This document shows, piece after piece, positions 13,401-49,392 of a stretch of 64,000 nt of DNA; the first letter of the stretch is position 1, and the number at the start of each line of letters is the position of its first letter. Origin of the DNA: Promethearchaeia archaeon (GTDB lineage Archaea; Asgardarchaeota; Lokiarchaeia; Sigyniarchaeales; SOKP01); assembly GCA_029856145.1 (NCBI GenBank), contig JAHQWK010000001.1, positions 224,001 to 288,000 on the forward strand, written 5' to 3'. The translations under genes and the position numbers were made by a program. Below the pieces are notes generated by a model that worked only from the letters and a program-made list of their open reading frames with translations, had not been told where the DNA came from and did no database searches.

Positions 13401-15001
13401 TATGGACATTTTAATTCAAATTTCCCTTGTCGCAATGCTACTTCATACTCTCTTGCTAAACGCTCAGCTCTTTTTGTCCTCTCCTCAATTTGATTTCTAA
13501 TATTTTGGATCTCAAGTTGCTTTTGACGCTGCTCTTCCATTAGTACTTGTTGTTTTTCGTCAACACCTACTTCTACATCTTCTTTCTTAACTTTCAGCAT
13601 TTTTTCAGCTTCTTCATGTCTTTTTTTCTTGTTAGCTTCAATTTGTCTTATCTTTTGATCTTTCTCAAATTTTTGGATGTAGACATTTATTGTATCATCA
13701 TAGATCGTAGCTTCATTATTCCAGCCCTTATCAATAAACAATTCCTTTATTCTTTTATAAATATCAATTACTTTGGGATACATGCATTTTTCTACTAATT
13801 TTCCGTCTTTAATAGCTTTTTGCATTGCTAATTCATATTCTCGCGCCATTCTAGCAGCTTCTGTTGCCATATTGTCAATTTGTGCTTTAAAAAATTCCTG
13901 TTCCATTTTCTGAAGTTCTATTCCGCTTACCCTTTCCATTTGTGCTATTTTTTCCTGTTCACTTATTTCTTTAACATGCTGATCAATTAATTTTTCTTTA
14001 TATAATTCGGTTTCAGTTTTTTGTTCAATATCTACTCGTTCTTTCTCAAGTCCTTTAAAATGTCTAATTTTTTCCTTCTCTAATATTTCTATAGTATCTC
14101 GAATTCTTTTAGCTTCATATGTCCAGTTCAATTCTTCAAATAGACTTACCCCTTCTGTATATAATTTTATAGCTTGATCATATTCATGCATTTTGGCTAA
14201 TTCTACCGCTTGGTCTAATATCTCATATGCTTTAGATGATACCTCTTCCTCTCGCTGTTTAGCATCAAGAAATTGCTTTAGCTTTTTCTCTTTTTGTTGC
14301 TCCTTCCTTGGTGGTGCTTCTAATTCTACAACCTCCATTGGTTCTTCTTTTTTAATACTTCGTAAATATTCCGCTTTTTTATTATAACATTCTTCAATTA
14401 ATAAATAAAGTCTTTTTATTTCATCAGATTTGTCATGTTCCTCAAGAATTTTTTCAGCTTCGTCATATTTATTAAGTGCTTCCTCAAACTTATTGATATT
14501 AGATAATTCATGAGCCTTTACTATCAGTTGGTTCGCTTTACTGATCAAATCGGCGTCAATTTTAGTTTCTTCGATTATATCATCTTCTTTAATCACTTCA
14601 ACCTCTTCAATTGCATCAAATTCATCGATCGCTTCAACCACTTTTTCTGGTTTTGCCTCAATTTCTCTAAATGCTTCTTCTTTTAGTATATACACTTCTG
14701 AAATTTTTTCATTTATAGCTTTAATTTCCTCTGCTCTATTAATTTGAGTATACAATCCAATTGCTTGACGTAAAATTTCAACACTATCATCATAATATTG
14801 TGATTCTATCAGATGAATAGCATGCTCCACTAATTCGTAAGCTTCAGTGGCAATTTCTTCTTCCATATCCATTAAATCAGAAAAAAAAGCATCCTTAGTT
14901 AAATCTAACTCATCATCATCGAATTCCTGATCAAAATCTAACTCATCATCATCGAATTCCTGATCAAAGTCTTCCTCTCTTTTCTCTTCCATAAACTTCA
15001 T
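10424..15001 (-). CDS. 1525-aa helical-bundle (TPR/MIT-like) repeat and coiled-coil protein
   Basis: About 13 repeats such as AYEILDQAVELAKMHEYDQAIKLYTEG and AERMAREYE..PY..I.IY..GW..EA separated by E/K-rich coils. Confidence 0.8.
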   Translation of the reverse strand: MKFMEEKREEDFDQEFDDDELDFDQEFDDDELDLTKDAFFSDLMDMEEEIATEAYELVEHAIHLIESQYYDDSVEILRQAIGLYTQINRAEEIKAINEKISEVYILKEEAFREIEAKPEKVVEAIDEFDAIEEVEVIKEDDIIEETKIDADLISKANQLIVKAHELSNINKFEEALNKYDEAEKILEEHDKSDEIKRLYLLIEECYNKKAEYLRSIKKEEPMEVVELEAPPRKEQQKEKKLKQFLDAKQREEEVSSKAYEILDQAVELAKMHEYDQAIKLYTEGVSLFEELNWTYEAKRIRDTIEILEKEKIRHFKGLEKERVDIEQKTETELYKEKLIDQHVKEISEQEKIAQMERVSGIELQKMEQEFFKAQIDNMATEAARMAREYELAMQKAIKDGKLVEKCMYPKVIDIYKRIKELFIDKGWNNEATIYDDTINVYIQKFEKDQKIRQIEANKKKRHEEAEKMLKVKKEDVEVGVDEKQQVLMEEQRQKQLEIQNIRNQIEERTKRAERLAREYEVALRQGKFELKCPYPKIIDIFEKARQIALERGWETDVTIFSSQIHTYKQKLEKDNRLRQIEAEKVRKQEEIEEIFKVKEGPVVGLDAEKLKSLEEQKGLEKEEEDFDSIIDVMIKRAESMAREYESAMKKAIKEKKLAEKPPFLKIIGIYERVKRMLLDKGREVEAGAYSSQISYYTQKLEQDNKLREVEAKKAQREKALEDMHKIGKEIGVDKKRLKVIERKKEEEDFEKYISDNVNSAEKMVRDYEIEKRKAYREGEILENTPYTDVIEIYKQIREKVYARGWKEQAEVFANQIKIYQEKLDKHEKLLEVEAQKVQREKALEEMHKIGKKEVISAKPEKIKELEAGKKEENILLDKAMYLIDESEKAVKSYELSIRKDILVYKSPYYNAISNYEKAREILQKIGWMEEASRLINTIKFYKDKREKDEKLRKIEQKKLERPEIELKAADIQPGKDFLERQKRLLEIEQKEKDGDEIAARIFNMIQAAERMAQEYELKIKGGVFDYEAPYEKVIEIYREARKKFEKINWKEESEKLKNTINFYKDKLAKDKKIRALEAEKVRNREEELLLQQNYLEQARIEQEKLIQQRRESLDLKRERVAQFETQKDKAFRLMDQAKRELRLNHYNKAIEFYNESEKIFANIKWQEGINMVRDSVAMITSKKKAFELEQKTIEKRKIEKFLIEEKLEEKLAEAQIIKRRQQEQKRKEFLKIQRGKEQERQISEEAYELLEEGTTLTDRGKYVEAYEKYIAARELFQQISWQREVSRINNELLFKLKRKQKQDEILEDIKIKKFEEKKQMVLLKEEAKREQKEEAKRKKEEKRRFVKEEILRKISVKLDKASKLIENFRYNEGILMMIEEIQRLTKLGQEEEISKINEQVEKVTSVAEIPIIILEASDDELQNKKVKAAYKALDKAQGAIAENQIKRAISELNEANFQLSSLKIGKKFVKEINEKITELRERLGVKPSKERVKVSSEDEAEKLRARITARREERRKKVLDLLKKD
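14901..14966. repeat. Exact 33-bp tandem duplication in the acidic (DFDQEFDDDEL)x2 N-terminus
   Basis: AAATCTAACTCATCATCATCGAATTCCTGATCA at 14901-14933 and 14934-14966. Confidence 0.95.
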
Positions 15002-18494: not shown

Positions 18495-20210
18495 TTAACC
18501 AGATCTTAAAACCTTTTTATCAACTTTTCCAACTGCGGTGAGCGGGAGCTCTTCTGAAAACTCTATCAATTTGGGAACTTCATATGGCGATAAATTCTCT
18601 TTTGAAAACTTTAATATATCTTTTTCAAGAACTTCCTTATTTCCATCAAATTCAAAATCGGGATTAATTTGTATAAATGCTTTGACGATTTCAGAACCAG
18701 GTCTATCTGGGTTTGGAATACCAATTAATGCAACTGACCCAATAGCAGGATGTTTAACTAGACTATCTTCAACCTTGGCAGAAAATACTTTAAATCCTCC
18801 AACGATAATCATGTCTTTGGTGCGGTCAACAATCTGAATATAACCATCCTCATCCATTATTCCGATGTCACCACTATGCATATAACCATCTTTATCTATA
18901 GCTTTAGCTGTTTCTTCTGGTTTATTATAATATCCTTGCATTACCAATACACCTTTTACACAAATCTCTCCAGGCTCTCCCAATGGAACCAGCTCATTAG
19001 TTTCAGGGTCAACGATCTTTAGATCGACATTTAAAATTGGTACTCCTACCTTACCTAATTTTTTCTTACCTATAGAGGGATTCATTGTTGCTACGGGTGA
19101 TAATTCTGTCATTCCATAAAGCTCTAATAATTTGCCTTCTCCTACTATACTTTCTAAAACTTCTTGAGATTCTTTTGGAAAGGGAGACGCTGCGGAAATG
19201 CATATTTTCAAATTTGTGTGATCTAATCTTTTAAATTTTCGAAAATTAATTAAAATTTGATACAAAGAAGGTACATTAACTAGGACTGTTGGTTTATATT
19301 TTTTCATTTCATTACAAATTTGTAATGAATCACGAGGATTAGCAATTAAAACTTGACTCCAACCCAAGGCAATAGCACCTTGACATACAGTTAAACCAGC
19401 AATATGAAACATAGGAAATCCTGATAATAAAACTCCTTTTCCCTCTTCCCATTGAAGCCATTTAATGATCCCTTTCATATTTGAAACATAATTTCTATGA
19501 CTCAACATTGCACCTTTGGGCGGGCCTGTGGTTCCACCAGTATATTGAATCCAGCCAATATCATCCGGAGTTATATCAACTTTTGGTAAATCAGTAGAAA
19601 ATTTTGTCAGTACATCGTCTTGAAAATTGTAAACAATCTTTCCTTCTAATGGAGTGACCTCCCCAGAGGGGATTTCTCTAACTGCTTTAATTTTTGCTTG
19701 ATCTTCTTTAGAAAATGAACCGATTACACTTGTAGCTACCACTACTTTTAGTTGTGGTAATTGGTCAGCGACATTTTTCAAACGATGTTCAAAAATTGCA
19801 TCAAGCGTTACTAAAGCAACATTTTTACCTCCTTTTCCAAGATCATCTAATTGATAATGCATTTGAACATCGGAGAGTAGAGGGCTAACACCTGAAACAA
19901 CACATCCGGCTTTAAGTGTACCTATAACTGAATATACATATTCTGGAATGTTTGCTAAATTAATTCCTACTACATCCCCCTTTTTGAACCCATTTTCAAT
20001 CAACATATTTGCAAATTGATTAGAATATCTATCTAACTCACCATAGCTGATTTCTAATCCCTGAAAAGCAAGTGCTAAATTATCGGGATACTTATCAAAC
20101 ATTTTTTGTACCAGTTCAGCAAATGTAGTCTCAAATTCTTTCGGGTCAAGATCTTCCAATCCAGGATCCCAGCTTTTTTTCCAAAATCTGCTTTCATACG
20201 GATTTGACAT
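18495..20210 (-). CDS. fadD: Long-chain acyl-CoA synthetase (AMP-binding enzyme)
   Basis: QYTGGTTGPPKG, YGMTE, SGDIG, DRTKDMI, LPLTAVGK; ATG 20210 preferred by comparison with the neighbouring paralog. Confidence 0.9.
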   Translation of the reverse strand: MSNPYESRFWKKSWDPGLEDLDPKEFETTFAELVQKMFDKYPDNLALAFQGLEISYGELDRYSNQFANMLIENGFKKGDVVGINLANIPEYVYSVIGTLKAGCVVSGVSPLLSDVQMHYQLDDLGKGGKNVALVTLDAIFEHRLKNVADQLPQLKVVVATSVIGSFSKEDQAKIKAVREIPSGEVTPLEGKIVYNFQDDVLTKFSTDLPKVDITPDDIGWIQYTGGTTGPPKGAMLSHRNYVSNMKGIIKWLQWEEGKGVLLSGFPMFHIAGLTVCQGAIALGWSQVLIANPRDSLQICNEMKKYKPTVLVNVPSLYQILINFRKFKRLDHTNLKICISAASPFPKESQEVLESIVGEGKLLELYGMTELSPVATMNPSIGKKKLGKVGVPILNVDLKIVDPETNELVPLGEPGEICVKGVLVMQGYYNKPEETAKAIDKDGYMHSGDIGIMDEDGYIQIVDRTKDMIIVGGFKVFSAKVEDSLVKHPAIGSVALIGIPNPDRPGSEIVKAFIQINPDFEFDGNKEVLEKDILKFSKENLSPYEVPKLIEFSEELPLTAVGKVDKKVLRSG

Positions 20211-20403
20211 GTTAAAATTACACATTTTTTATTTATTAAATCCAATTCAAATTCGAATTGTGATATTAAATAAGCTATATTTTATTAAAAAGGTTTATCA
20301 AAATTTTTTATTCTTTCAATCCCAATAAGAATTTTCTATAAAAATGTTTTATTTCTATAACTATTTGAATCTATTAAAAAGAATAATAATAAAAAAAAAG
20401 GGA

Positions 20404-22116
20404 TTAATTTTTTCGTAAAAGTTTTTTATCTACTTTTCCAACTACCGTAAGTGGCAATTCTTCTGTAAATTCAAACAATTTTGGAACTTCATATGGTGCG
20501 CATTCTTTCTTAGCAAATGCTAAAATCTCTTCTTTTAAAGTTTCTTCATTATCGTATTCATAATCTGGCGCAATTTGTATTACAGCTTTAACAATTTCAG
20601 ATCCAGGTCTATCAGGATTTGGAACGCCGATAGTGGCTATCATTTCAATAGCAGGATGCTTTGTTAAAGTATCTTCCAATTTTGCAGAGAAGACTTTAAA
20701 TCCACCAACAATAATCATATCTTTTGTTCGATCTGCAATTCTTACATACCCCTCTTCATCCATAATTCCAACATCACCAGTATGCATGAAGCCATCTGAA
20801 TCAATAGCATTCTTAGTTTCTTCTGGTTTGTTATGGTATCCATCCATAACCATCGGGCCTTTAATGCAAATCTCTCCGGCTTCGCCTAAAGGTACTTTTT
20901 CCCCTGTGTCAGGGTCTACAAGCTTAAAATCTACATTAGGGAAGGGTAGACCAATATGTCCCAGTTTTTTATTCCCTCTTGAAGGATTGCCAATTGTTAA
21001 TGGTGAAGTTTCAGTCATTCCATATAATTCTATGAGTTTTCCTTCACCAATTACACCTTCAAATATCTCCTGTGATTCCTTTGGAAAAGGCGCTGCTGCG
21101 GATATTGCATAATCAATCATATTTCTGCCGATTTTTTTGAATTTTGGATTCTTTATCAACATTTGATACAATGTAGGTACGTTTGCCAAGACGGTGGGCC
21201 TATATTTTAACATTTCTTTAATAATATGGTTAGTGTCTCTCGGATTTGGTATTAAAATCTGACTCCAACCTAACATTATTACATTCGAGCAAGTAAATAA
21301 TCCTGCTATATGGAAAAATGGGAACCCTGACAATCCAAAGCCTGTTCCAAATTCCCAGCTAAGCCAATGCTGAAATATTTTTATATCTGCAACGAAATTT
21401 CTATGACTTAACCTCGCTCCTTTTGGGGGTCCAGTAGTACCACCAGTATATTGAATGAATGCAATATCTTCTGGATTTATTTTTACATTTGGTAATTCAT
21501 CAGGATATTTGCCTTTGATTTGTTTATGATATTCAAGCACAATTATTCCTTCTAATGGAGTAACTTTCCCCTTAGGTATCTTCCCTACCATTTTTCCTAG
21601 CTTTGCTAACATTTTCGGCATGAATCCGCCAACTGAGGTTGTAATAACAAGCTTTAATGATGGAATTTTTGTATAAATCTTAGTAATATGACCTGCAAAA
21701 ATAGCATCCAAAGTAAGCAAAGCAACTTGTTTTCCTCCAGCTCCTAAATCGTTTAATTGATATTGTATCTGAACAGCCGAAAGAAGTGGAGAGACACCTG
21801 AAACGATAATTCCTGCTTTTAAACCTCCCAAAATTCCAATTATATATTCAGGAATATTGGCGGTATTTATTCCAAGAACATCCCCTTTTTTAAGTCCATT
21901 TTCAATTAACATATGAGCAAATTCGTTTGATAACTTATCTAATTCTCCATACGTAATTTCTGTTCCATAAAAAGCAAGCGCTAATTTTTCAGGGAGTTCT
22001 TCAAATGCTCTTCTAGCAATTTCAGTAAAAGAAGCTTCGAACTCTTTAGGATCCAGATCCTTAATATTTGAGTCCCATTTTGACTTCCAGAACCTATCTT
22101 TATATTGTTTTGACAT
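20404..22116 (-). CDS. fadD: Long-chain acyl-CoA synthetase, tandem paralog
   Basis: QYTGGTTGPPKG, YGMTETSP, TGDVG, LPLTVVGK; co-linear with 18495-20210. Confidence 0.9.
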   Translation of the reverse strand: MSKQYKDRFWKSKWDSNIKDLDPKEFEASFTEIARRAFEELPEKLALAFYGTEITYGELDKLSNEFAHMLIENGLKKGDVLGINTANIPEYIIGILGGLKAGIIVSGVSPLLSAVQIQYQLNDLGAGGKQVALLTLDAIFAGHITKIYTKIPSLKLVITTSVGGFMPKMLAKLGKMVGKIPKGKVTPLEGIIVLEYHKQIKGKYPDELPNVKINPEDIAFIQYTGGTTGPPKGARLSHRNFVADIKIFQHWLSWEFGTGFGLSGFPFFHIAGLFTCSNVIMLGWSQILIPNPRDTNHIIKEMLKYRPTVLANVPTLYQMLIKNPKFKKIGRNMIDYAISAAAPFPKESQEIFEGVIGEGKLIELYGMTETSPLTIGNPSRGNKKLGHIGLPFPNVDFKLVDPDTGEKVPLGEAGEICIKGPMVMDGYHNKPEETKNAIDSDGFMHTGDVGIMDEEGYVRIADRTKDMIIVGGFKVFSAKLEDTLTKHPAIEMIATIGVPNPDRPGSEIVKAVIQIAPDYEYDNEETLKEEILAFAKKECAPYEVPKLFEFTEELPLTVVGKVDKKLLRKN

Positions 22117-31629: not shown

Positions 31630-33321
31630 TTATACTTCTTCTCCTCGTCTTTTAGCCTCGATATCTTTTAAGTCCTTTCTTAAAACTTTACCCACAAGCG
31701 ATTCAGGAAGTTCTTTCCGATATTCAATGAATTTTGGGATTTTATAGGGCGCAACATTTTGTCTTAGAAACTCCTTTATTTCCATCTTCATTTCATCTGT
31801 CTCATGAAATCCATCTTTTAATATTATATATGCCTTAACTTTTTCACTACCAGGAAGATCTGGATCTGGGATACCTATAATAGCAGCATTTTCAACAGCT
31901 TCATGTTCAAACAAAACATCTTCAAGTTCTCTAGGATATACTTTAAAACCACTGACGTTTATCATATCTTTCTTCCTATCAACAATATACATATACCCAT
32001 CTTCATCAAGTTTTCCAATATCACCTGTTAAAACCCATTCTCCTTTCAATTGACCTGCAGTTTCTTCTGGTTTGTTCCAATACCCTTTAAAAACTTGAGG
32101 CCCTTTAATCATTATTTCTCCTGCCTCACCCATAGGAACGATCTTAGTATAATCATCAATATCTACAATCTTTACTTCCGTATCTGGAAATGCTAATCCA
32201 ACGGAACCAACTTTTCTGAGGCCATTTACAGGATTACTATGGGTTACTGGTGATGTTTCAGTCATACCAAAACCTTCAATAATTTTGCCTCCAGTTCTTT
32301 CTTCGAATTCTTTAAGAACTTCAGGTGGCATTGGTGCTGCACCTGTATTACATACTCGTATTGATTTTAGGTATTTAGCATAATCTTCAATATCATCTCT
32401 TTCTAAGAGACGCATATACATGGTTGGTACACCAGGAAAATACGAAGGGTTTGTTGCTTTAATAATTTCAAAAAGAGATTTTTGATCTCTTGCGTCAGGA
32501 TTCAATGCTAATGTAGATCCGGAATATATTTGAGTATTCATACATACTGTCATACCATATATATGAAATAAAGGCAAATTAGTAAGCATCGTTTCTTTGC
32601 CTCTCTTTATGTCAGGTCCTACCCAAGTAGCAGTTGCAATACTATTTGAAACGATATTATAATGAGTCAACATAGCTCCTTTAGGTAAGCCAGTTGTTCC
32701 TCCGGTGTATTGCAATATTGCGATATCCTCTTTTGCATTAATTTCAAAATCTTGAATATTTGGTTTAGTTTTCTCAATTATATTTAGGAATTGTATTGTT
32801 CCAACGATTTCCGGTGGATTTTTTGAACCCATTGGAGCATAATCAAAGACATTAGTAATAATAATATGTCTTAATTTCGTTCGGTCTTTGATCTTATTAA
32901 TTTTATCAAGTTGAGAATCCCATGCTATTATTATTTCTACACCAGAATCATTAAGTTGATAAGCTAATTCGTGTTCTGTATGTAGCACACTACAAGCTGT
33001 GACAATTCCACCTGCTTTCAGAATACCATAAAAACTGAATAGAAATTGTGGAAAATTTGGGATCATTATAGCTACAACATCTCCTCTCTTTACTCCTAGG
33101 TCCACTAAAGCTGTTGCTAATCTATCTGCAATATCCTTGAATTTTTTATAGGAAATCTTATTCTTCATGAACCAAATTGCTGTTTTACTACTAAATTCTT
33201 CAACGGTATTGTCTAATAATTTATATACATTCATTTCAGGATATTCAATATGCTCTGGAACACCCTTATCATAATGTTTTACCCAAGGTTTTGCTGCATA
33301 TGGATTTTCAGTTTCATTCAT
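31630..33321 (-). CDS. fadD: Long-chain fatty acid-CoA ligase
   Basis: LQYTGGTTGLPKGAMLTH, EGFGMTETSP, TGDIG, DRKKDMI, LPESLVGK. Confidence 0.92.
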   Translation of the reverse strand: MNETENPYAAKPWVKHYDKGVPEHIEYPEMNVYKLLDNTVEEFSSKTAIWFMKNKISYKKFKDIADRLATALVDLGVKRGDVVAIMIPNFPQFLFSFYGILKAGGIVTACSVLHTEHELAYQLNDSGVEIIIAWDSQLDKINKIKDRTKLRHIIITNVFDYAPMGSKNPPEIVGTIQFLNIIEKTKPNIQDFEINAKEDIAILQYTGGTTGLPKGAMLTHYNIVSNSIATATWVGPDIKRGKETMLTNLPLFHIYGMTVCMNTQIYSGSTLALNPDARDQKSLFEIIKATNPSYFPGVPTMYMRLLERDDIEDYAKYLKSIRVCNTGAAPMPPEVLKEFEERTGGKIIEGFGMTETSPVTHSNPVNGLRKVGSVGLAFPDTEVKIVDIDDYTKIVPMGEAGEIMIKGPQVFKGYWNKPEETAGQLKGEWVLTGDIGKLDEDGYMYIVDRKKDMINVSGFKVYPRELEDVLFEHEAVENAAIIGIPDPDLPGSEKVKAYIILKDGFHETDEMKMEIKEFLRQNVAPYKIPKFIEYRKELPESLVGKVLRKDLKDIEAKRRGEEV

Positions 33322-33524: not shown

Positions 33525-34868
33525 TTAACTCACTCCTAATCTCTCTAATGAATCAAGAGCAATTGTAACTACAAGATCAGATTTATCTTCTAATAATTTC
33601 TTTAAAGAGGGAATAACATTTGGATCATCTGGTTTAATTTTAGCTAACGCCTCAGCAGCTCGCCATCTAATTTCTGCCCTCTTATCATTTAGAGCATTAA
33701 CCAATTCAGTACTAACTTTTGAAGCTGAAATTCCAATTTTTCCTAATGCAATAGCCGCTTCACTGCGAACTCTTAATTTTTGGTCGTTCAAAGCTTCTGC
33801 TAATGCAAAAACGGAATCACTAGCTACTGATCCAAGATTTCCTAGGGCTCTTGCAGTTTCAACACGTACAATAGTCTTAGGATACTTTAACATTTTAATA
33901 ATTTCTGGAATAGCTTCTAATGCATCATCTCCCATTTTTCCCATAGCCCAAACTACCAAACTGACTACATTTTTATTAGGATGGTTTAAAGCTTCGATTA
34001 ACGTTTTTATTGCTGGTTTTCCAATACTTCTTATGGCATCAGCAGCTCTACCTCTTATTCCTTTTTTCCTATCGTCAAGAGCTAAGGTTAATTTTTCTAA
34101 TATTTCAGAATCTGCAAGTTTCATCTCTCCAAATGCTTCTATGATGCTTTTTCTTACAATAGGGGAATAATGCTCAATATAAATCAAAAGGGTAGGAACT
34201 GCATTTGATCCCATTTCACTTAGGGTATATATTACAGCTTTTCTTACTCTCCAATCTTTATCTTCTAATGCTTTTAGTAGAACAGGTAAAGCATTTAATG
34301 CATCCTTACCTACTTGTGCTAAAGTATTAACTGCAGCTGTTCTGACTGCCCAACTATAATCTTTAATTGCATTTATCAATGCTGGAATTGCTATATATGC
34401 TTCAGATTTAAAATAACCCAAGGAATTAGCTGCCTCTGTTCTAACTTCTTCATTTTTGTCTTTTAAGGCAGTAATTAAAGCTGAAATTGCTTCATCGCTA
34501 ATAAATCCGATTTTTCCTAGAGAAATTACAACTTCTATACGAATCGAAACTTCATCATCTTTAACTAGCTTTGATAATTCCGAAATTGCATTTTCCGCGA
34601 CATTTCCCATTTTTCCTAAAGTCCTTACTGTTTCTCGACATATACTCCAATCATTATCTGCTAAGCATTCAATTAATTCTGAAAGAGCAGATTCAGATTT
34701 TTTCCCTAATTCACCTAAGACTAAAATAGCATTGAATTTAATTGATCTAATATCGCTATTTAATTGTTCTATTATATCATTAATTACATTTGGATCTTTC
34801 TCAACTCTAGCTAAAACCAAATCAATTCTTGCATCCCTTAATAATTTTTCTAACGACGCTGAAATCAT
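33525..34868 (-). CDS. HEAT-repeat (PBS lyase-like) protein
   Basis: About 13 repeats of L..AL.D....VR..AA.ALG.IG; GGTGA RBS just after the livF stop. Confidence 0.9.
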   Translation of the reverse strand: MISASLEKLLRDARIDLVLARVEKDPNVINDIIEQLNSDIRSIKFNAILVLGELGKKSESALSELIECLADNDWSICRETVRTLGKMGNVAENAISELSKLVKDDEVSIRIEVVISLGKIGFISDEAISALITALKDKNEEVRTEAANSLGYFKSEAYIAIPALINAIKDYSWAVRTAAVNTLAQVGKDALNALPVLLKALEDKDWRVRKAVIYTLSEMGSNAVPTLLIYIEHYSPIVRKSIIEAFGEMKLADSEILEKLTLALDDRKKGIRGRAADAIRSIGKPAIKTLIEALNHPNKNVVSLVVWAMGKMGDDALEAIPEIIKMLKYPKTIVRVETARALGNLGSVASDSVFALAEALNDQKLRVRSEAAIALGKIGISASKVSTELVNALNDKRAEIRWRAAEALAKIKPDDPNVIPSLKKLLEDKSDLVVTIALDSLERLGVS

Positions 34869-40207: not shown

Positions 40208-43200
40208 TTATAAGACGAAATTAATAATTATCTGAATAGCTACTATTATTCCTAAAACTATAAGAACAATAATCAAGATAATAAGTGTATAAAATCTCCA
40301 CTTAATTGAAATATTTTCACTTCTTTCTTTAAATCTTATATAGGGTAATAATATTACTCCAATAATCCAAATTGATATCCAAATGGTGAAAACATACCAA
40401 ACTGGTGTTATAACAGTAAATAAAAGCGTAATAATACTACCCCAACTGATAATTAGTCGATACATTCGACGTCTAAACATTACATTGACATCATCAGATT
40501 TTTTGGAGGGGATAAGAGAGTATAGTATTCCAAAAATAGGAAATATTAGAAGGATTGAATAGGTCCAATCTAAATAATTAAACATAGCCGGTGATAAGGA
40601 GATACCAATTAAAGCAGCTATGAAAATGCTAAATACTATCCAGAGCGATTTATAATATATCTTTATAAAGTGGTAGATTTTAATGAACATATTCTTAATT
40701 GCTAATTTAAGAGATCTAAAGAATTTTGAAAGAAAATCAATAAAATTATTGATAAATCGTTTTAATTCTTCTAAAAGAAAGATAAATGGATAAAGTAAAA
40801 TTCCAAAGCTAAGAACTGTAATACCTAAACCTACGAAAGAAACGCGATAGACTATTAAAAATAATAAAATAAATATCACTAACCAAAACAGAAACGCGAT
40901 AGATGCGAAAGATGAATGTTTTTTGAATGGTTTTAAATGAATTGCTAAAAATATTACAAAAATTAACGAACTACTACTTAAATTTAAAATTAAATCAAAG
41001 TTTGGAATTCCTCCTAATATTAAAAATGAATCAATAGATAATAAGGCGCCAATTATTAGAAATGAGGAAGATCTCAAGGATTTTCGTAATTTTTCATTGA
41101 GCATTTTATCCAATAGAGTTATTAAAAACATGATGATAAAAGAAGCTAACACTAAATTAAGATTGGCAAATTGATCCAAACTAGAGAAATATAAAGGCCA
41201 TGTTATGAAATTGAGATATGAAATTATTATCAAACCAGACTTGATTTTCTTTTTATAGGTATCAACAATTTTCCAAAAAGCTAATAATTTAAAAAGGTAA
41301 GCAAACTCAAGAATCAGTATAATAATGATAAAAGGAATTACTGTAAAAAAGAAAGCTATAAAATAAGTACTGTAAATCCATATTAAGTAAGTTGATGTAA
41401 ATATCATAATCAAAATCCAAGAAATTGATTTGATATAATCAGTAATTTTTCCTAAGAATTTGAATAGAAAGCTATCTATAATCATTAATACATGGATTAC
41501 AAGGCTTAAAATCAATAAAATCAATTGGACATTAAACCCTTGCAATGTTAATGGTTGTATTATAGAAAAACATAATGTAGCATAAAAACCCATACCTAAA
41601 AGTCGGTGAATATATGTTTGAGCCTTATTATAAACATCTTTTTTATCAGGGAAAAATAATTTTAATGCTTTAAAGAAAGAATAATTTGTATAAAATTGCA
41701 TTAGTAGAAAAATGAAAATTTCTAAACTAAATAAGAAGGGATATTGAAATACAAGATTGTGTAAAAATAGAAATAAATTTAACGACAATATAAAATAACT
41801 AATAGTATGAACTAAACTTGCATAACTTTTCTTTACTTTTTTTATAGAATAAATATCTAATAATGTCAAAACAAATAATATTGACAGAGCTACCATGATA
41901 CTTTCAAAAATTCCTATAAATGTATTCACTAAACCATAGATCAAGATACTTATTTCAAAATATAGTATCAATACCATTAATGAATGCATTTTTAGCAGAA
42001 AGTTTGGATATTTTTGCTGTGCTATAATTGTATTAAAATATTTTATAGATACGAATGAAAGGCATATTTCTATAAAAATCATTGAATTAATTGAAATGAA
42101 ATTTAAAAAGCCAAACAATATGAAGATGTAAATCAAGTTAATGGCCAATAATCCTTGAAATACGATGAAAAGAATAAATTCGATCCTATTTTTTATATTT
42201 TTTTCAATTTTAACGAAAATAAGACTTAAAACATACAATAAGAGTGATGAATTTTGGAATAACAATAAAAAGTATCCAAATCCTCTTAATTGGTCAAAAA
42301 TAAGTATCAATCCATCAGAAATTAAAGATGCTAGAAAAAAAGAACTCCAAATAAATGAATTATAAATAAGTAATAACCGAAGCTTTGAAATAGTTTCTTT
42401 TGAAATATCCATATGAGATAAGAAATGTAGAGAAATAAGATTTAAAACTGAAAACATCAATACTAAGAGGAAAATGTTTAAATGAAACAAAAATATAAAT
42501 AAAGACAATGTATTACAGAAAATAAACCAAGACCATAGTATAAATTTGTTTCGGGTTGAAGTAATTAAAAAATTAAATATATTCTGATCAATAAATGCAA
42601 CTTCAATAAAAACTACAGCACTTATGGCTAATAGAACCAAATAAGTTGAAATTACTAAATTGGCATTAATAAAAACAAAATATAGAAAAATATTGATACC
42701 CAAAGCTATAGGAATAAAAAGATATAAAATACAACTTAAGATGTTGAAATAACGTAATAGATCCTTTATCTTTAAGTCTAACTCCGATTTTTTTACATAT
42801 TTCATACAAATTAAGAATAAAAATGGCCAGATTATTAGAAAATCACAAATCTGATAAATTAATAAAATATCAGTGAATAATATCTGCATAAATAAATTTG
42901 GTAAAATAATTGCAAGAAATAGAGATATACAAACTGAATTTATTAGAAAACATGCAAAATTGAGCCATTTCAATTGATTTTTATCCTGATAAAGTTTAAA
43001 CATACTATTTTTAATTTCAGCTGTGTCATCTTTTACAGAACTCTTGAATATATTAATTAGAATTTGAAAAGTAATAAGATAAAGCATTGGCCAGGTTAAA
43101 AAGGCAAAAATCCAATTAGGGTAAATTATGTCAAGTGTTAATAACCATTCTAAAATAGGAGAAATTATAGGGATTGGAATAGCAAACCAAAGGATATATC

Positions 43201-46200
43201 GATATTCGGTGAATATAAAATATAAGAATATAATAAAAACTGTAGAAAATGTAGAAATTAAAACACCTGTTGGTGCTTGAAATAGAATGGAGGTTAGAGA
43301 AGTAATTGATAAGGATGCTCCAACTGCCACTGTTAAATATGGAATTATTTTATTAATGGATATTCTCATTTTATAACGATTAAATATGAAAAAAGAGCAT
43401 CCAAAAACAGTTAGAGCTAATGAAAAAGCAAAAATTATAAAACCCGGAAATAAATTGAATGTATTGAAGGTCAACCATGAAAAATTGATGATTAAAATCC
43501 AAGAAAGGCATAAATCGATTACTCTTTTAGGTAATTTTAAGTATTTTGAGGAAAAGAGAGTGAATCCAAATACGAGTAGACTAATATTTAATGAAAATAT
43601 TGGGTGTTGTATTATCGAATAAAGAATAAAATAGAGAGTTAAGAAAATACCTAATAAAGTTATGATATATGCGCTTATTAAAACAATACCTATAGATCTA
43701 ATATTCGGGAAAAACGAGTACACAATTAAAAATAATCCAATAACTAAGATATCAATGGAAATCGTAATTTCTAATGAGAGACCAATTGAAATCAAATAAA
43801 ACAACAAAAATGATGCATTAATAATTGTTAAAGGAAATACCCAAAAAATCGAAATAACTTTCCAGAATTTAAATATTGCTAACAATGGCATCACTAAAGT
43901 CACTGAAAACATAATAAAAAATAAATTTCTCAAAAGAAAATCCGTTACAAATAAATTCTGACTAAACCAATAAAGTAAAAATAGACTTTCCCCCCATACA
44001 ATAAATATAATTAGAGAAAAATATTTCTTGATTTTACTATACACCACTGGTAGGAAAAATAAAGAGCAAATTATTATAGATAAAATAAATGAACCACTAG
44101 CATCAAATATTCCAAAACTCAATGAACTTGTAAAAACATCAATCCCAGTTAGACTTTGATAGATTATAAACCAATTTGCAATGGGTAAAATGTTCCAAAT
44201 ATACCATCCTGATTTCCAAATCGCCCATGATATTCTCCATTGATAAATTCCAATAGATAAATAAAATAGAAAGACTCCAAAGTTAATTGCAACTATTAAA
44301 GGGACTAAAGACCATAAAGGCATAGACAACGCAGCAATTATAAGAAAATATAAAAAGGTTGGAAAAGAAAAAACTATTGATATCAATACTACATAGAACG
44401 ATTTCTTCCTAAATCTTGCTGGCGCATCATTATACAAAAGAACAAATGCAAAACCTGTCATACTCAAAGTTAATGTGAAAGTCAAAATAGGATTGTATTC
44501 TCTAAAAATTGGGTGAGAAAAGAGCCAAGAATATGATAAAAAGCTTATGAAATCAAAAACAAATAGAATTACGCAAGGATTTATAAACCATTTATATCTC
44601 TCATCTTTTTTACGATAAAAAGAGATTCCCAAAAATAATAGAAGTATGAAAAGAGAAATTGTTATGTTATAAATAAGTAAAATTTTCGTAAATAGGCTGA
44701 GAAAGAAAAAAGACAAGATAGAAATGAGAGAATATAATGTAAATTTTTCTAAGGTGTTATTTTTTTTAATATTTAGCAAAATCGAGAAAAATAAAACACC
44801 ACCCATAGATAAGAGGTAAATTATAGTAAAAATACCTATTAAAGCTATATCAAATCCAGTTATAATTCCATAAAAATTTAAAATAACTAGGATTTCGACG
44901 AAGGTAACATAGCTCAATAAGAAATAGGATAAAAATCGAAAAAGGGGAAATATACTCCTTTGAGAAAGAATAAGTGACCATATTATTATAATAAGAAACA
45001 GTGATAAAATAGAGCTGAAATAAAGAAGACTTATAGATAATATGAAAGATAAACAGTAAAATCCAAATAATTTCAAAACAGCATCTTTTTCAACTATTTT
45101 ATTAAACCTTATAGAATAATAGAAGAAAATTAAAATTAGGTTAATTATTAGAGTTCCTACATGAAACGAAGGATTCTGATAGAATATAGGGATTTGAGTT
45201 GTCAAACTTAAAAGAATTTCAAGATATAAACTTGATAATGATGTTGTAAATACTATTACAGTGATTCTTTTTATTATAAATTGATTTTTAGAGGATATAT
45301 ATTTCAAATTCTTTAAAATATATAGACTTAGAGGAGTTAAAAAGGCAAACGTTAAAGAAAATAAAGTAATTTTGTTTAAAATAAAGAATTGATACACAAA
45401 ATAATCAATTAGAGAAAATAACAAAATACAAATTATGATCTTAATGACTATCCATGCTGTTAACTCAATAATAGTCTTTACTTGAGTTAATTTCATTTCA
45501 TTTAAATTGTTACAGACAATAAGAAACACAAGAAAAATTATAAAAAAGAACCCTACTATTATTGAAATTTTAAATAATATCGGTAGTGTGTTAAGAAATG
45601 CAAAAAGATTAGTTGAGAGGCTTAAAAAAGTAAATATCGATGATATTGAGATAATTATTCCATAGATAAGTATATCCTGAAAATTGCTTAAATTTGGCAG
45701 TCTTGTAAAAATATTAGATGCTAGGCTTAGGGTGTATAAACTTAAGATAAAAAATACAAAAAAACAACAGCTTAATATTAAAAATGTAATGGGGGTCATC
45801 TCTATTGTAATGATAAAGATAGACGCAATGTAATATGATAATAGCAATGTAAAAGAAAACCAAGCGACTAATCCGGATGATTTGAAACTTTTGATGTAAT
45901 TATCTTTTAATTTAATTTTTATACTAATAATTTCAGAAATCTTCAAAAAACAAAATAATATAAATACGGTTATCGTAATTATAAGAATTAAATTTGGTAC
46001 TAATCCAATTCTTGCTAATTCTAAACCAATTACTGTCGGTATCGAAACAATTAAACAAGATAATGCAATAAAATTATATATTGTTAATTTTTTAATCCAT
46101 TCTAAGTTGAAATACTCTCTTTTATAAGAATAATAAAACAAGAAAAACCATGAAAAGAGTAATGCGATTAAAGGTAAGATTATCCCATAAAAAGTCCCAA

Positions 46201-49168
46201 ATAGCAATAAAAGTGGATAAAAGAAGACTGTTGTGACAGAAATACTAAATAAAGTAATTATCTGAAGCTGTTTCAAAAATAAGACAAAATTCTCTTTTAC
46301 TTTAAATTTGTTTGATACTCTTATGAGAATTGAAATAAATAGATAGAAAATATACACAGAAGAATTTAATATATTCAGTATAAAAAGATTTAAATCAAAG
46401 ATTAAACCTAAAGTGAGTAAATTTATACCATCTATTATTGGAATTGAAGTAAACAAACTTGTTAGAATCAAAATATTTGAAATTATAACTCTTTTTGTTG
46501 ATTCTAAATTGAAAATCTCTTTCTTGTAAGAATAAAAGAAAGGGATAAAGAGGAAGCTGGAAGTAAGAATTAATGGTAAAATTATGCAATATAAAGTATC
46601 AATTAATAAGAAAAGGAGATAATAGAAGACTGTTGTAAGGCTTATACAAATTGCTATTATTACTTGTGATTTCAATAAGAATTTAACTCGTTTTTCACCA
46701 CTATTGAATTTCATTGATGCGTAGTAATAAATAGCAAAAATTGTGAACATAATATACAAGGTAAAATTAATTACTGTCATTAATAAGAAAATTAAATCGA
46801 AATAAATGCCTAAATAGAATAATTCTAATCCTATAGTAGTTGGGATTAGTGATATTGTCACTGAAAATAATATACTATTTATTTTTATTGATTTAGATAT
46901 TAAAGTTGGGTATATCCTTTTCAATCTTAAATATAAAAGCGGAAAGAATAGAATTATACTTGAAACCATAAGAGGAATTATAAAAACATATAGGGTATCA
47001 AATGTAAGCATTAAAAAATAGTAAAACGCTATTAATACGCTATATAGTAAAACAAAAACGTTTATTTTGATAAAGAGGTCTTCAGAAAAGATCCCCTTTT
47101 TCGAAAATAGGTTAATTATCGCACAAACTACTGCTAATGATAAAAATATTGAATAGATTATGTTATCAAACAGTGAAAGAGCTTGAAAGACTGAATAAAA
47201 TAATGTAAAAAACAAATATAAAAGCTCAACTGTTATCAGGTAAGAATTGACTTTAATATATTTTTTAAACTTAAGTTCATTCACGCGTCCTAATTGTAGT
47301 CCAAATTTTAAGAGAAAATAATAAAAAACAGAAGCAATAAGGAAATCAAACGCTAAAATAAGAAAGTAAGTAGTAAGTAAAGAGATAATCAGTAGAGATA
47401 TAAATAAATCACTTAATAATATCCAGAGAGAAAAATAACTATGCTTTAATAAATATTCCTTCGGAAACACATGAAGACCATAATTTAAATAAAGAAAAAC
47501 TAGGAAAATAATAGGGAAGCAGATCAATGAGATACATATTACTTGTAAAAATGGAATAAGTTCGATTAAAAAATAAACTCGAAAAATAATGAAAGCAAAA
47601 ATTAATAGTTCGATTAAAAAGCTATTTACTAATACAACCCTTCTAAATAATCTGGGGCTCTTAGCATGAAAATATCTAATGCTTAATACATAATGTGAAA
47701 TTAACAATGTTACTAGAATAAATACTGAGTGTAATAGAATATTTGAAACTAAAATTACTATAGGGTCCGAGGTAAAAGTTGTGTATTCAAAAATAATTGC
47801 TGGAAAGAATGTATATAGAACTAAGGAAAAACTTGCCACAGCAAGTAAATTTTGGTATACGATAATATCTTCTTTAATAAAATATTTTAATTTAACAAAT
47901 ATTTGTAGAACAAAATACAGAGAAAGACAAAACACTAAGAAATTTAATAATATGGTCTCTATTAACAGGGGAATTATACAAAAAGAGATATAGATCAAAA
48001 TCGCAATTGAGTTTAACAGAACCACAAATTTATTATATATCTTAGAACATAGACCTGCCTTCTGTTCATAATGAAGAAGGATATAGATAAATGGAAGAAT
48101 AATTAAGATTAATAGAGGAATTCCAGTTAAAAAGGAATATAAAGATATTAATAAAATTAAAATACCAGATAAAAACGAATTGTATTTTTGGTACTTGATA
48201 TTTTCCAGGGAAGTATTTTCATTAGAATTTTCTATTTTTTCAGACTCATCATACAACTTAAGCTTTGAAGTATAATGAAAACTGACATAAAACATAGACT
48301 TAAAATAAAATAAGATAAAGATTAGGACTAAGAAAAGGTTGTTTAGTACTTCTAAGCTCAAAAAAGAAACACCCGAAAGAATGCGTGTAGCAATCACAAT
48401 AAAAGGCATTTGGATTAAGAGAATAAAAATTAAGCCTATTTGAGAAGCCACAAATCGCCGTTTAAATCTTGTTAAATCTTTTAGAATGGGTTTTTTCTCA
48501 TTAATAGAATCTCGAATATTATTAACCTGACTCTTTGTACTTGTTAAGGTGATAATATAAATAATTAGGTTTGTTATAAGAGCATAAAGCCAAGCAAAGT
48601 TAGTAGGTGCAGTAACGGTTAAGAAAATAATGTGAATAAAGTAATTAGAAACTATCAAGAAATTGTAAGGTTGTTTAATCATCAATTCCAAACTTTTTGC
48701 ATGTTTGAATTCTTCTTCTTTTAAGTTAAAAAAGTCAATCGGTTGGAAATAATAATAATAATAAATAACATTGTAGAGAATCGCATAACTAATCAGTGGA
48801 AGTAGAATAAATGAGTCGAATGGTGAAATAAATATAAAAATAGGAGTTGTAACAAAGGATACGATAGAAATCAGAAAAAGCACATGAATTCTAGCGGTAA
48901 GATTATTCTTTTTATTAAGAAAAAAGGGATTATCTCTGTATTTATCAAAAGCTTTATAAAAAAAAAGTAAAGCAAACATAAAGCCTACAACTGAGAAAGA
49001 TAATATAATGAATAATCCAATTCCAGCAAAATTAAAAATTGAAAAAATAGCAATCGCTACTATTAAAGGAGCAATAATTAAAAAAAATGAAAACCACCAA
49101 AATTTATGAAGTAATTCTGTGGCTTTCTTAATTCTCTCTTGTGAGTTATCACTATTTTTTGATTTCAT
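40208..49168 (-). CDS. Giant polytopic membrane protein (about 2990 aa), unknown function
   Basis: 9-kb uninterrupted ORF that is almost entirely TM helices with short loops; internal 133-134 aa repeats; ATG 49168 preferred to TTG 49180. Confidence 0.85.
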   Translation of the reverse strand: MKSKNSDNSQERIKKATELLHKFWWFSFFLIIAPLIVAIAIFSIFNFAGIGLFIILSFSVVGFMFALLFFYKAFDKYRDNPFFLNKKNNLTARIHVLFLISIVSFVTTPIFIFISPFDSFILLPLISYAILYNVIYYYYYFQPIDFFNLKEEEFKHAKSLELMIKQPYNFLIVSNYFIHIIFLTVTAPTNFAWLYALITNLIIYIITLTSTKSQVNNIRDSINEKKPILKDLTRFKRRFVASQIGLIFILLIQMPFIVIATRILSGVSFLSLEVLNNLFLVLIFILFYFKSMFYVSFHYTSKLKLYDESEKIENSNENTSLENIKYQKYNSFLSGILILLISLYSFLTGIPLLILIILPFIYILLHYEQKAGLCSKIYNKFVVLLNSIAILIYISFCIIPLLIETILLNFLVFCLSLYFVLQIFVKLKYFIKEDIIVYQNLLAVASFSLVLYTFFPAIIFEYTTFTSDPIVILVSNILLHSVFILVTLLISHYVLSIRYFHAKSPRLFRRVVLVNSFLIELLIFAFIIFRVYFLIELIPFLQVICISLICFPIIFLVFLYLNYGLHVFPKEYLLKHSYFSLWILLSDLFISLLIISLLTTYFLILAFDFLIASVFYYFLLKFGLQLGRVNELKFKKYIKVNSYLITVELLYLFFTLFYSVFQALSLFDNIIYSIFLSLAVVCAIINLFSKKGIFSEDLFIKINVFVLLYSVLIAFYYFLMLTFDTLYVFIIPLMVSSIILFFPLLYLRLKRIYPTLISKSIKINSILFSVTISLIPTTIGLELFYLGIYFDLIFLLMTVINFTLYIMFTIFAIYYYASMKFNSGEKRVKFLLKSQVIIAICISLTTVFYYLLFLLIDTLYCIILPLILTSSFLFIPFFYSYKKEIFNLESTKRVIISNILILTSLFTSIPIIDGINLLTLGLIFDLNLFILNILNSSVYIFYLFISILIRVSNKFKVKENFVLFLKQLQIITLFSISVTTVFFYPLLLLFGTFYGIILPLIALLFSWFFLFYYSYKREYFNLEWIKKLTIYNFIALSCLIVSIPTVIGLELARIGLVPNLILIITITVFILFCFLKISEIISIKIKLKDNYIKSFKSSGLVAWFSFTLLLSYYIASIFIITIEMTPITFLILSCCFFVFFILSLYTLSLASNIFTRLPNLSNFQDILIYGIIISISSIFTFLSLSTNLFAFLNTLPILFKISIIVGFFFIIFLVFLIVCNNLNEMKLTQVKTIIELTAWIVIKIIICILLFSLIDYFVYQFFILNKITLFSLTFAFLTPLSLYILKNLKYISSKNQFIIKRITVIVFTTSLSSLYLEILLSLTTQIPIFYQNPSFHVGTLIINLILIFFYYSIRFNKIVEKDAVLKLFGFYCLSFILSISLLYFSSILSLFLIIIIWSLILSQRSIFPLFRFLSYFLLSYVTFVEILVILNFYGIITGFDIALIGIFTIIYLLSMGGVLFFSILLNIKKNNTLEKFTLYSLISILSFFFLSLFTKILLIYNITISLFILLLFLGISFYRKKDERYKWFINPCVILFVFDFISFLSYSWLFSHPIFREYNPILTFTLTLSMTGFAFVLLYNDAPARFRKKSFYVVLISIVFSFPTFLYFLIIAALSMPLWSLVPLIVAINFGVFLFYLSIGIYQWRISWAIWKSGWYIWNILPIANWFIIYQSLTGIDVFTSSLSFGIFDASGSFILSIIICSLFFLPVVYSKIKKYFSLIIFIVWGESLFLLYWFSQNLFVTDFLLRNLFFIMFSVTLVMPLLAIFKFWKVISIFWVFPLTIINASFLLFYLISIGLSLEITISIDILVIGLFLIVYSFFPNIRSIGIVLISAYIITLLGIFLTLYFILYSIIQHPIFSLNISLLVFGFTLFSSKYLKLPKRVIDLCLSWILIINFSWLTFNTFNLFPGFIIFAFSLALTVFGCSFFIFNRYKMRISINKIIPYLTVAVGASLSITSLTSILFQAPTGVLISTFSTVFIIFLYFIFTEYRYILWFAIPIPIISPILEWLLTLDIIYPNWIFAFLTWPMLYLITFQILINIFKSSVKDDTAEIKNSMFKLYQDKNQLKWLNFACFLINSVCISLFLAIILPNLFMQILFTDILLIYQICDFLIIWPFLFLICMKYVKKSELDLKIKDLLRYFNILSCILYLFIPIALGINIFLYFVFINANLVISTYLVLLAISAVVFIEVAFIDQNIFNFLITSTRNKFILWSWFIFCNTLSLFIFLFHLNIFLLVLMFSVLNLISLHFLSHMDISKETISKLRLLLIYNSFIWSSFFLASLISDGLILIFDQLRGFGYFLLLFQNSSLLLYVLSLIFVKIEKNIKNRIEFILFIVFQGLLAINLIYIFILFGFLNFISINSMIFIEICLSFVSIKYFNTIIAQQKYPNFLLKMHSLMVLILYFEISILIYGLVNTFIGIFESIMVALSILFVLTLLDIYSIKKVKKSYASLVHTISYFILSLNLFLFLHNLVFQYPFLFSLEIFIFLLMQFYTNYSFFKALKLFFPDKKDVYNKAQTYIHRLLGMGFYATLCFSIIQPLTLQGFNVQLILLILSLVIHVLMIIDSFLFKFLGKITDYIKSISWILIMIFTSTYLIWIYSTYFIAFFFTVIPFIIIILILEFAYLFKLLAFWKIVDTYKKKIKSGLIIISYLNFITWPLYFSSLDQFANLNLVLASFIIMFLITLLDKMLNEKLRKSLRSSSFLIIGALLSIDSFLILGGIPNFDLILNLSSSSLIFVIFLAIHLKPFKKHSSFASIAFLFWLVIFILLFLIVYRVSFVGLGITVLSFGILLYPFIFLLEELKRFINNFIDFLSKFFRSLKLAIKNMFIKIYHFIKIYYKSLWIVFSIFIAALIGISLSPAMFNYLDWTYSILLIFPIFGILYSLIPSKKSDDVNVMFRRRMYRLIISWGSIITLLFTVITPVWYVFTIWISIWIIGVILLPYIRFKERSENISIKWRFYTLIILIIVLIVLGIIVAIQIIINFVL

Positions 49169-49392
49169 CGCCCAACACAATTTTAATTGTATCTTGAGAT
49201 TAATGAAAATGTTAGTTTATAAATGTATCAGAATTATATTTACTAGTTTGTTAAGAATACTTAAAAGCTTTTATCAAATTTGAACATTTTCTTCAAAAAA
49301 ATTTCGGAAAAGAGCAAAACTAAGACGTTTTTTGACAATTTTGATAATCCTATAAAACTTTTAAATTGGCTAAATCGGTGAAAATCCATTGA

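Follow-up and report, generated by a model that had tools for sequence, protein, structure and literature searches.

What can a protein do that is built almost entirely of membrane-spanning helices? The question is raised by a gene in a 64,000-nucleotide stretch of contig JAHQWK010000001.1 (positions 224,001 to 288,000 of the forward strand; hereafter the window) from the assembly GCA_029856145.1 of a Promethearchaeia archaeon. The open frame at 40208..49180 on the minus strand measures 8.96 kb and 2,990 codons when counted from a TTG. An ATG at 49168 lies four codons inside this frame, and because the orthologues start at the same methionine (M-K-S...), we assign to the gene a protein of 2,986 residues, referred to below as the giant protein:

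40208..49168, minus strand: gene for the 2,986-residue giant protein, from the ATG at 49168 to the stop codon at 40208-40210

Our answer has two parts of different strength. The architecture, some 93 transmembrane helices in the form of 46 hairpins and a last helix, with an indel-free hub and two arms that gain and lose blocks, we regard as close to settled (probability about 0.9). The function, which we infer to be structural or membrane-organising, is a tentative assignment (about 0.35). The giant open frame, present in a single copy in its genome, is a real conserved gene under purifying selection: nucleotide identity to close orthologues (at 78% amino acid identity) is 0.92 at the second codon position, 0.82 at the first and 0.65 at the third, the order expected of a protein under purifying selection.

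The helix count was obtained by dynamic-programming segmentation of hydropathy averaged over eleven orthologues, which gave 89-96 helices across settings and 94 at the setting kept. A single predicted helix among these, at residues 2812-2835, carries three or more charges; it has five, together with a high hydrophobic moment, and treating it as a cytoplasmic amphipathic helix leaves 93 helices and restores the alternation of lysine and arginine between successive loops through to the C-terminus:

40649..40771, minus strand: long amphipathic Lys/Arg-rich helix, residues 2800-2840, predicted to be cytoplasmic and not membrane-spanning

The raw count does not discriminate, as shuffled copies of the sequence yield 100 ± 2.4 ‘helices’; we therefore rejected it as proof and replaced it by measures of charge and alternation. 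By these, the real sequence differs clearly from its shuffles: the segmentation score is 4051 versus 3285 ± 62, the helices contain 41 charges versus 120 ± 8, and a strict rule (19 uncharged residues with a mean hydropathy of at least 1.6) finds 70 segments versus 31. The Lys/Arg content of successive loops has an autocorrelation of -0.64 at lag 1 and +0.68 at lag 2, where shuffles give 0 ± 0.1. Furthermore, we modelled two pieces of about 725 residues each with AlphaFold on 90-sequence alignments, one from the arm that carries the repeat units described below (residues 570-1292) and one covering the hub (1404-2132). Their secondary structure contains 22 long helices in the first piece, versus 22 by segmentation, and 22-24 in the second, versus 24. 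This agreement is independent of the segmentation rule, and on the two together we therefore give about 93 helices (range 89-96), where a sequence-only reading of the locus had estimated 80 or more by eye.

By the positive-inside rule, the N-terminus is predicted to lie inside and the C-terminus outside. The 47 inner loops comprise 789 residues with 190 Lys/Arg and have a median length of 15 residues; the 47 outer turns and tails comprise 285 residues with only 9 Lys/Arg, and the outer turns are at most 17 residues long, with a median of 5. The longest loop anywhere in the protein is 42 residues long, bearing out the earlier impression that there is almost no soluble domain. Hairpins follow each other with a period of 63 ± 7.6 residues, or about one helix per 32 residues, and about two thirds of the chain is predicted to lie within the bilayer. 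Leucine (17%), isoleucine (16.5%) and phenylalanine (12.7%) together account for 46% of the residues, and this composition is the reason for the low G+C content of the gene, 24% versus about 30% in the surrounding region.

How is so long a chain organised? Among 91 family members, residues 1500-2000 show almost no indels, and indels gather in four zones: residues 1-300 (absent in about 37%), 600-1000 (varying copy number of the repeat unit), 2040-2200 and 2400-2700, the last with insertions of up to 635 residues. With the indel-free stretch extending to residue 2040, the chain is therefore best described as a fixed hub with two length-variable arms. Conservation, too, peaks in the hub: the commonest residue holds a mean share of 0.53-0.67 there and of 0.35-0.5 elsewhere. 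The hub contains many invariant Trp, Pro, Gly and Asn residues, and it includes a tryptophan-striped segment:

43049..44671, minus strand: hub (residues 1500-2040; helices about 46-64), the best-conserved stretch of the protein, with essentially no indels

44192..44245, minus strand: YQWRISWAIWKSGWYIWN (residues 1642-1659), an amphipathic stretch with a tryptophan stripe, in a hub loop on the cytoplasmic side

In YQWRISWAIWKSGWYIWN, which has a hydrophobic moment of 1.17, W1644, W1648, W1651, G1654 and W1658 are kept in at least 85% of members, and W1651, G1654 and the nearby P1662 are invariant in the family alignment A2. Behind the segment, AlphaFold places short broken helices and a small beta hairpin, with low confidence (predicted local distance difference test, pLDDT, 54-64). 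Over the whole protein, 202 positions are kept in at least 85% of members, with tryptophan enriched 5.3-fold, proline 3.1-fold, and glycine and tyrosine 2-fold. Only 7 of the 134 conserved positions within helices are Asp, Glu, Lys, Arg or His (E520, E648, K1243, R1411, E2405, H2559 and D2565), and these are scattered along the chain. At the same 85% level, the hub helices contain no conserved charged residue, and the loops contain no conserved acidic, basic or histidine cluster. Such a pattern bears the signature of constraints on packing and interfaces, and not that of a catalytic or ion-coupling site; a pore with a lining of backbone or small polar residues would still be compatible with it.

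The arms are where length is gained and lost, and the clearest agent of this is a four-helix unit of about 133 residues. Three consecutive copies lie exactly where the sequence-only reading had placed them, starting near 47023, 46624 and 46222:

46625..47023, minus strand: four-helix unit 1, residues 716-848

46223..46624, minus strand: four-helix unit 2, residues 849-982

45821..46222, minus strand: four-helix unit 3, residues 983-1116

The three are 37-40% identical in pairwise comparison, with composition-adjusted BLASTP E values of 2e-20, 2e-19 and 5e-8. When each of 47 hairpin profiles was searched against the whole family alignment, with the reversed alignment as a control, hairpins in these units found their counterparts in the other units at scores of 52-100, versus at most 23.9 in the control. 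Among 101 long family members, 6 have no copy of the unit, 25 have one, 41 two, 17 three, 11 four and one has five. Every extra unit adds four helices and so preserves the topology; judged from these sequences, the 133-residue unit is an evolving module. Does the rest of the chain consist of older copies of the same kind? The idea of tandem four-helix repeats holds for the three clearly homologous units but not, at the sequence level, for the whole chain, and the expectation of further, more diverged copies found weak support in faint reciprocal hairpin pairs just above the control: hairpins 34/35 with 38/39 (scores 29-37), 4 with 5 (about 32) and 23 with 43 (about 28). The first of these would mark an older duplication:

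42401..42772, minus strand: hairpins 34-35, residues 2133-2256, half of a faint older duplication (profile scores 29-37 versus 23.9 in the control)

41654..42013, minus strand: hairpins 38-39, residues 2386-2505, counterpart of hairpins 34-35 in this faint duplication

As these four pairs are all that was found beyond the three units, we rejected the notion of a detectable homologous repeat array running through the whole chain. The design appears uniform, hairpin after hairpin, yet the protein is not demonstrably a chain of homologous repeats.

How widely is this design distributed? With the full protein as query, relatives are present in 23 of the 24 genomes of the genus at 45-79% identity, and wherever contigs permit, the orthologous frames are full length (2,745-3,335 residues). 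A word-indexed search of 5.8 billion proteins returned 102 clusters of 1.7-3.75 thousand residues, all annotated as ‘hypothetical’, none with a Pfam domain, and labelled either as Lokiarchaeia/Promethearchaeota or as bins of neighbouring Asgard names. An exhaustive hidden Markov model (HMM) search of 1.84 billion representatives with a profile of the hub recovered 55 proteins, all of them giants or fragments of giants, with no small stand-alone relatives among them. In 185,579 species genomes we found 75 loci, all but one contig in metagenome-assembled genomes (MAGs) of Promethearchaeota. When the hub profile was run over 400 genomes of the phylum, 117 were positive, in four families of one Lokiarchaeial order (101 of 134, 12 of 14, 1 of 1 and 2 of 4), and some thirty other families of the phylum gave no match. 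Profile A2 of the hub recognises the protein of this genome at E 1.8e-302, and in the order's 116 other positive genomes the matches extend down to E 1e-18. The family is thus closed and confined to one Lokiarchaeial order, and this distribution, together with the 0-5 copies of the unit, supplies what the sequence-only reading had wished to know of its occurrence and repeat number.

Within the family, length ranges from 2,500 to 4,900 residues and the predicted helix number from about 84 to about 142. The orthologue set has 71-106 predicted helices (the lowest number from a 2,300-residue frame), and distant members of 3,151 to 4,920 residues have 96-142. Two distant members were identified by exact look-up: DSAG12_00898 of Promethearchaeum syntrophicum MK-D1 (QEE15075.1, UniProt A0A5B9D7T7; 3,940 residues, ‘hypothetical protein’) and MCF2139232.1 of Candidatus Harpocratesius repetitus (4,296 residues). 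With E values of 3e-66 and 2e-53, respectively, against the hub profile, they are true homologues of the same all-helix design, with about 119 and about 129 predicted helices; however, they are much longer, lack a recognisable 133-residue unit and have a few loops of 60-85 residues. In the published MK-D1 data, DSAG12_00898 has an RPKM (reads per kilobase per million mapped reads) of 152, versus 203-317 for its neighbours (Imachi et al. 2020 Supplementary Table 3, PMC7015854). The family is therefore transcribed in culture, at least through this distant homologue, which bears on the earlier concern that the protein might not be expressed. We found no paper on the family or on DSAG12_00898 in the literature that was searched. 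Two members stand out for other reasons. One, on a contig labelled as a Nanopelagicaceae bacterium MAG (DATKTW010000160.1), is 43% identical over the hub, and the contig is probably a mis-binned Lokiarchaeial one. The other case is a closed 6.04-Mb genome (G171) with two family members, an open reading frame of 4,908 residues and a frame of about 3,150 residues, where the other genomes inspected closely have one each.

Does the protein nevertheless belong to something already described? Scans of the whole protein against Pfam and NCBIfam gave no match at E values up to 1, the Pfam Piezo models included, and neither did a search of the PDB sequences with the hub profile. PF10101 (DUF2339) does not match the protein, and its only trace in a six-frame search of the whole genome is a sub-threshold match of 16 bits on another contig. 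Structure searches with the two AlphaFold pieces were equally unproductive: Foldseek found nothing in the PDB at E ≤ 1e-3, and its top rows, non-significant at E 1.3e-3 to 0.1 and TM-scores of 0.1-0.2, are TPR/HEAT solenoids (SKI3, Ctr9, TTC7B, nucleoporins) and designed toroids; membrane bundles are not among them. With VIA-align, run against 48,161 chains, the best Z scores were 8.5 and 9.6, mostly to single hairpins or generic bundles and under the level expected for helical models. No Piezo chain stands among the matches listed by either method. A shape search of the ESM Atlas stayed at TM-scores, by query, of 0.26 or less. By ESM Atlas features, the best score for residues 700-1250 is 0.78, and the highest scores for the hub (0.90) come from unnamed bacterial clusters that share few features with it; further down, at rank 17 with a score of 0.85, stands a cluster with DUF2339 in 13% of its members, a faint language-model lead. 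The giant protein thus belongs to no described family or fold. Resolution into known transporter domains or into a widespread characterised family, which the sequence-only reading had held up against itself, did not occur in the Pfam, NCBIfam, PDB-sequence and 1.84-billion-protein searches.

What might such a protein do? Four-helix blocks have been gained and lost in mid-chain without breakage, and no segment resembles a compact transporter, which argues that the hairpins probably make mainly near-neighbour contacts. In our reading they would stack successively into an open ribbon, an alpha-solenoid in the plane of the membrane, rather than fold into a compact, transporter-like bundle. A modular, open architecture of this kind had been proposed before and looks plausible: unit copies vary from 0 to 5, blocks come and go in the arms round an indel-free hub, and both AlphaFold pieces combine high pLDDT (83.8 for the hub, 87.6 for the arm) with a low predicted template modelling score (pTM; 0.50 and 0.54). 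High local and low global model confidence is usual for elongated repeat proteins. The lack of a catalytic signature and of anything outside the membrane suggests that the protein probably works within the bilayer, where it could stiffen, order or shape a patch of membrane; the hub would then provide the specific point of contact or assembly, and the size would depend on the arms. The hairpins may be inserted one by one via an Oxa1/YidC-type insertase, which we propose because the translocated loops are very short.

Several observations speak against this structural interpretation. With its broken helices, its tryptophan stripe and its invariant Pro, Asn and Gly residues, the conserved hub resembles a specific functional site, and a pore or binding site could also account for it. 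The solenoid-like Foldseek rows fall short of significance (best E 1.3e-3, TM-scores 0.1-0.2), and any helix-hairpin array would attract them. Finally, the periodicity of conservation that would mark a lipid-facing side is weak, seen in 16 of 94 helices versus 6.9 ± 2.1 in permutations.

The hub brings us to the first of the other explanations, a channel, transporter or mechanosensor in which the hub (residues about 1500-2040), alone or as an oligomer, is the pore or gate, and the arms gather tension or curvature in the manner of Piezo blades. A fixed hub with two extendable arms, the four-helix units in these arms, and the short broken helices, small beta hairpin and invariant Pro, Asn, Gly and Trp residues of the hub would all fit such a device. 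Piezo1 and Piezo2, with 38 helices per chain and blades of nine four-helix units, hold the usually quoted record in helix number, and the giant protein shares with them a very large helix count, serial four-helix units and a conserved core with extended arms. However, there is no sequence or fold match to Piezo; Piezo has a C-terminal pore module and a large extracellular cap, whereas outer loops of at most 17 residues leave no room here for a cap-like domain; the conserved part is central here and C-terminal in Piezo; and the giant protein has about 2.4 times more helices. We therefore rejected membership in the Piezo family, to which the sequence-only reading had not claimed homology either. 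No other channel family matches in sequence, the hub helices lack a conserved charged residue, and on balance we judge a hub-centred channel or sensor unlikely, though it is a reading to be taken seriously. A different precedent is Arc3A (DUF2339, PF10101; PA5114 of Pseudomonas aeruginosa), which lacks catalytic residues and has 35 predicted membrane helices, their number differing from one species to another, and which protects against a phospholipase toxin and prevents the build-up of lysophospholipids (PMC8926400). By analogy, the dense helices of the giant protein might bind or sequester lysolipids or damaged lipids, or shield the bilayer from lipases or membrane-active agents. In both proteins the helices are densely packed, soluble parts are few, catalytic residues are lacking and the number of helices varies, and the DUF2339 cluster among the language-model matches of the hub points faintly the same way. 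Arc3A is the best precedent, in terms of function, for a protein that seems to exist for the density of its helices, as an analogy and not as a matter of membership. Membership in DUF2339 we rejected: Arc3A is bacterial, PF10101 fails on both the protein and the locus, and no Arc3B partner (PF13163) or lipid enzyme is found as a conserved neighbour. Moreover, archaeal ether lipids are, to our knowledge, not substrates of ordinary phospholipases A, and the mechanism of Arc3A itself is not established, so that a lipid-handling or membrane-protecting array strikes us as doubtful, and less probable than a channel.

It is also conceivable that many conventional transporter or permease domains have been fused and have diverged beyond recognition, or that the protein is a membrane enzyme of equally obscured ancestry, for example a glycan polymerase or ligase. 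Among polytopic enzymes and permeases, some do have many helices and few soluble parts, and genes of sugar metabolism lie upstream in two lineages (a GH4 glycosidase here; UxaC and UxaE in lineage P0045). Such an origin is hard to reconcile with the empty Pfam, NCBIfam and PDB-sequence scans, with a search of 1.84 billion proteins that returned family giants and their fragments and no small relatives, with structure matches that are only generic and helical (Z ≤ 9.6), with loops devoid of a conserved acidic, basic or histidine cluster, and with neighbours that are not kept beyond the genus; we consider it improbable. And what if the frame had no function at all, being a chance open frame or a decaying hydrophobic relic? 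Its extreme composition, and the fact that shuffles also appear ‘all-helix’ by hydropathy, might suggest so. However, an open frame of 2,990 codons in AT-rich DNA, conserved with its length in 117 genomes of one order, with the codon-position pattern of purifying selection, an ordered Lys/Arg alternation that is missing from shuffles and a transcribed homologue in MK-D1, leaves this reading next to no chance, and the conservation data refute it for practical purposes.

We return to the structural, membrane-organising reading with the question of how far it may be taken. At its boldest, the family could be a new class of membrane protein: an intrabilayer alpha-solenoid ribbon of some 46 or more hairpins, tens of nanometres long, whose length is tuned by four-helix units and whose hub joins ribbons or docks a partner, forming a skeleton in the plane of the Lokiarchaeial membrane by which its curvature or stiffness is set or sensed, for instance in long protrusions. 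We regard this full picture as a long shot. No known group of prokaryotes is more closely related to eukaryotes than the Asgard archaea, whose membrane architecture and protrusions hold a central place in models of eukaryogenesis. The order with the giant family includes the cultured Asgard archaeon MK-D1, which carries and transcribes a homologue, and the question is hence open to experiment.

What the protein is remarkable for needs careful wording. Omnitrophota encode giant proteins that may hold more helices, such as 147 in one chain of 147,155 residues (bioRxiv 10.64898/2026.06.07.730766). Both share a very high predicted helix number per chain, but the Omnitrophota giants have about one helix per 1,000 residues and consist mostly of extramembrane domains, whereas here there is about one per 32 and no domain outside the membrane. 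The distinction is therefore one of helix density without an extramembrane domain, and not of absolute number. Since almost the whole protein lies within the bilayer, and nearly every genome of the order has retained it, its work would have to be done within the membrane. We know of no characterised protein that approaches this density, one membrane helix per 32 residues, over a length of 3,000 residues. The ordered insertion and packing of 93 helices is a puzzle of biogenesis in its own right, and the family offers a natural template for designed transmembrane repeat proteins.

Around the start of the gene, the following features were noted:

49094..49168, minus strand: N-terminal cytoplasmic segment, residues 1-25, with the motif K-A-T-E-L-L-x-K-x-W-W-F, running into helix 1

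49169..49392, minus strand: upstream intergenic region

49216-49223, minus strand: putative TATA-like element TTTATAAA, 48-55 nucleotides ahead of the ATG

The N-terminal motif also opens the orthologues, and a diverged version of it is found in distant members. In one orthologue (L003), W-A-I stands at the conserved start in place of the W-A-M found elsewhere, with no ATG at the usual position; an unusual start codon or an upstream start may be used there. The gene is flanked by spacers of its own, 212 nucleotides on the 5' side and 198 on the 3' side, with T-runs past the stop codon; like the intergenic region and the TATA-like element, these were simply read off the DNA.

Within the genus, the giant gene stands between the GH4 glycosidase gene (upstream) and the genes of a Liv-type ABC transporter. 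As these adjoin it only within the genus, we rejected both as operon partners. In other lineages the neighbours are UxaC/UxaE (P0045), a PhoU-like protein and an amylase, histidine biosynthesis and GNAT genes, or SPFH and amidohydrolase genes; the neighbours here and at five related loci carry differing families and share none, and no conserved partner gene emerged from them. In MK-D1, the gene directly upstream of DSAG12_00898, DSAG12_00897 (L104:2207-3442, plus strand), encodes an SPFH/Band 7 protein of the flotillin type and has an RPKM of 284; among the loci read, the pairing of an SPFH gene with the giant gene occurs in MK-D1 only. SPFH proteins are organisers of membrane microdomains.

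Elsewhere in the window, three further observations may be recorded. Directly after the Liv-type ABC genes, positions 33525-34868 (minus strand) encode a 447-residue protein with at least nine HEAT repeats (HEAT_2, E 1.6e-92). Three paralogous AMP-binding genes of the acyl-CoA synthetase type lie within 15 kb of each other at 18495-20225, 20404-22116 and 31630-33321 (all minus strand). Finally, a 1,525-residue open reading frame at 10424-15001 (minus strand) lies in a region where the strands are very strongly skewed in composition (AT skew as low as -0.35, GC skew -0.36), and its sole Pfam match is to the MIT domain, just under the cut-off (29.1 versus 30 bits).

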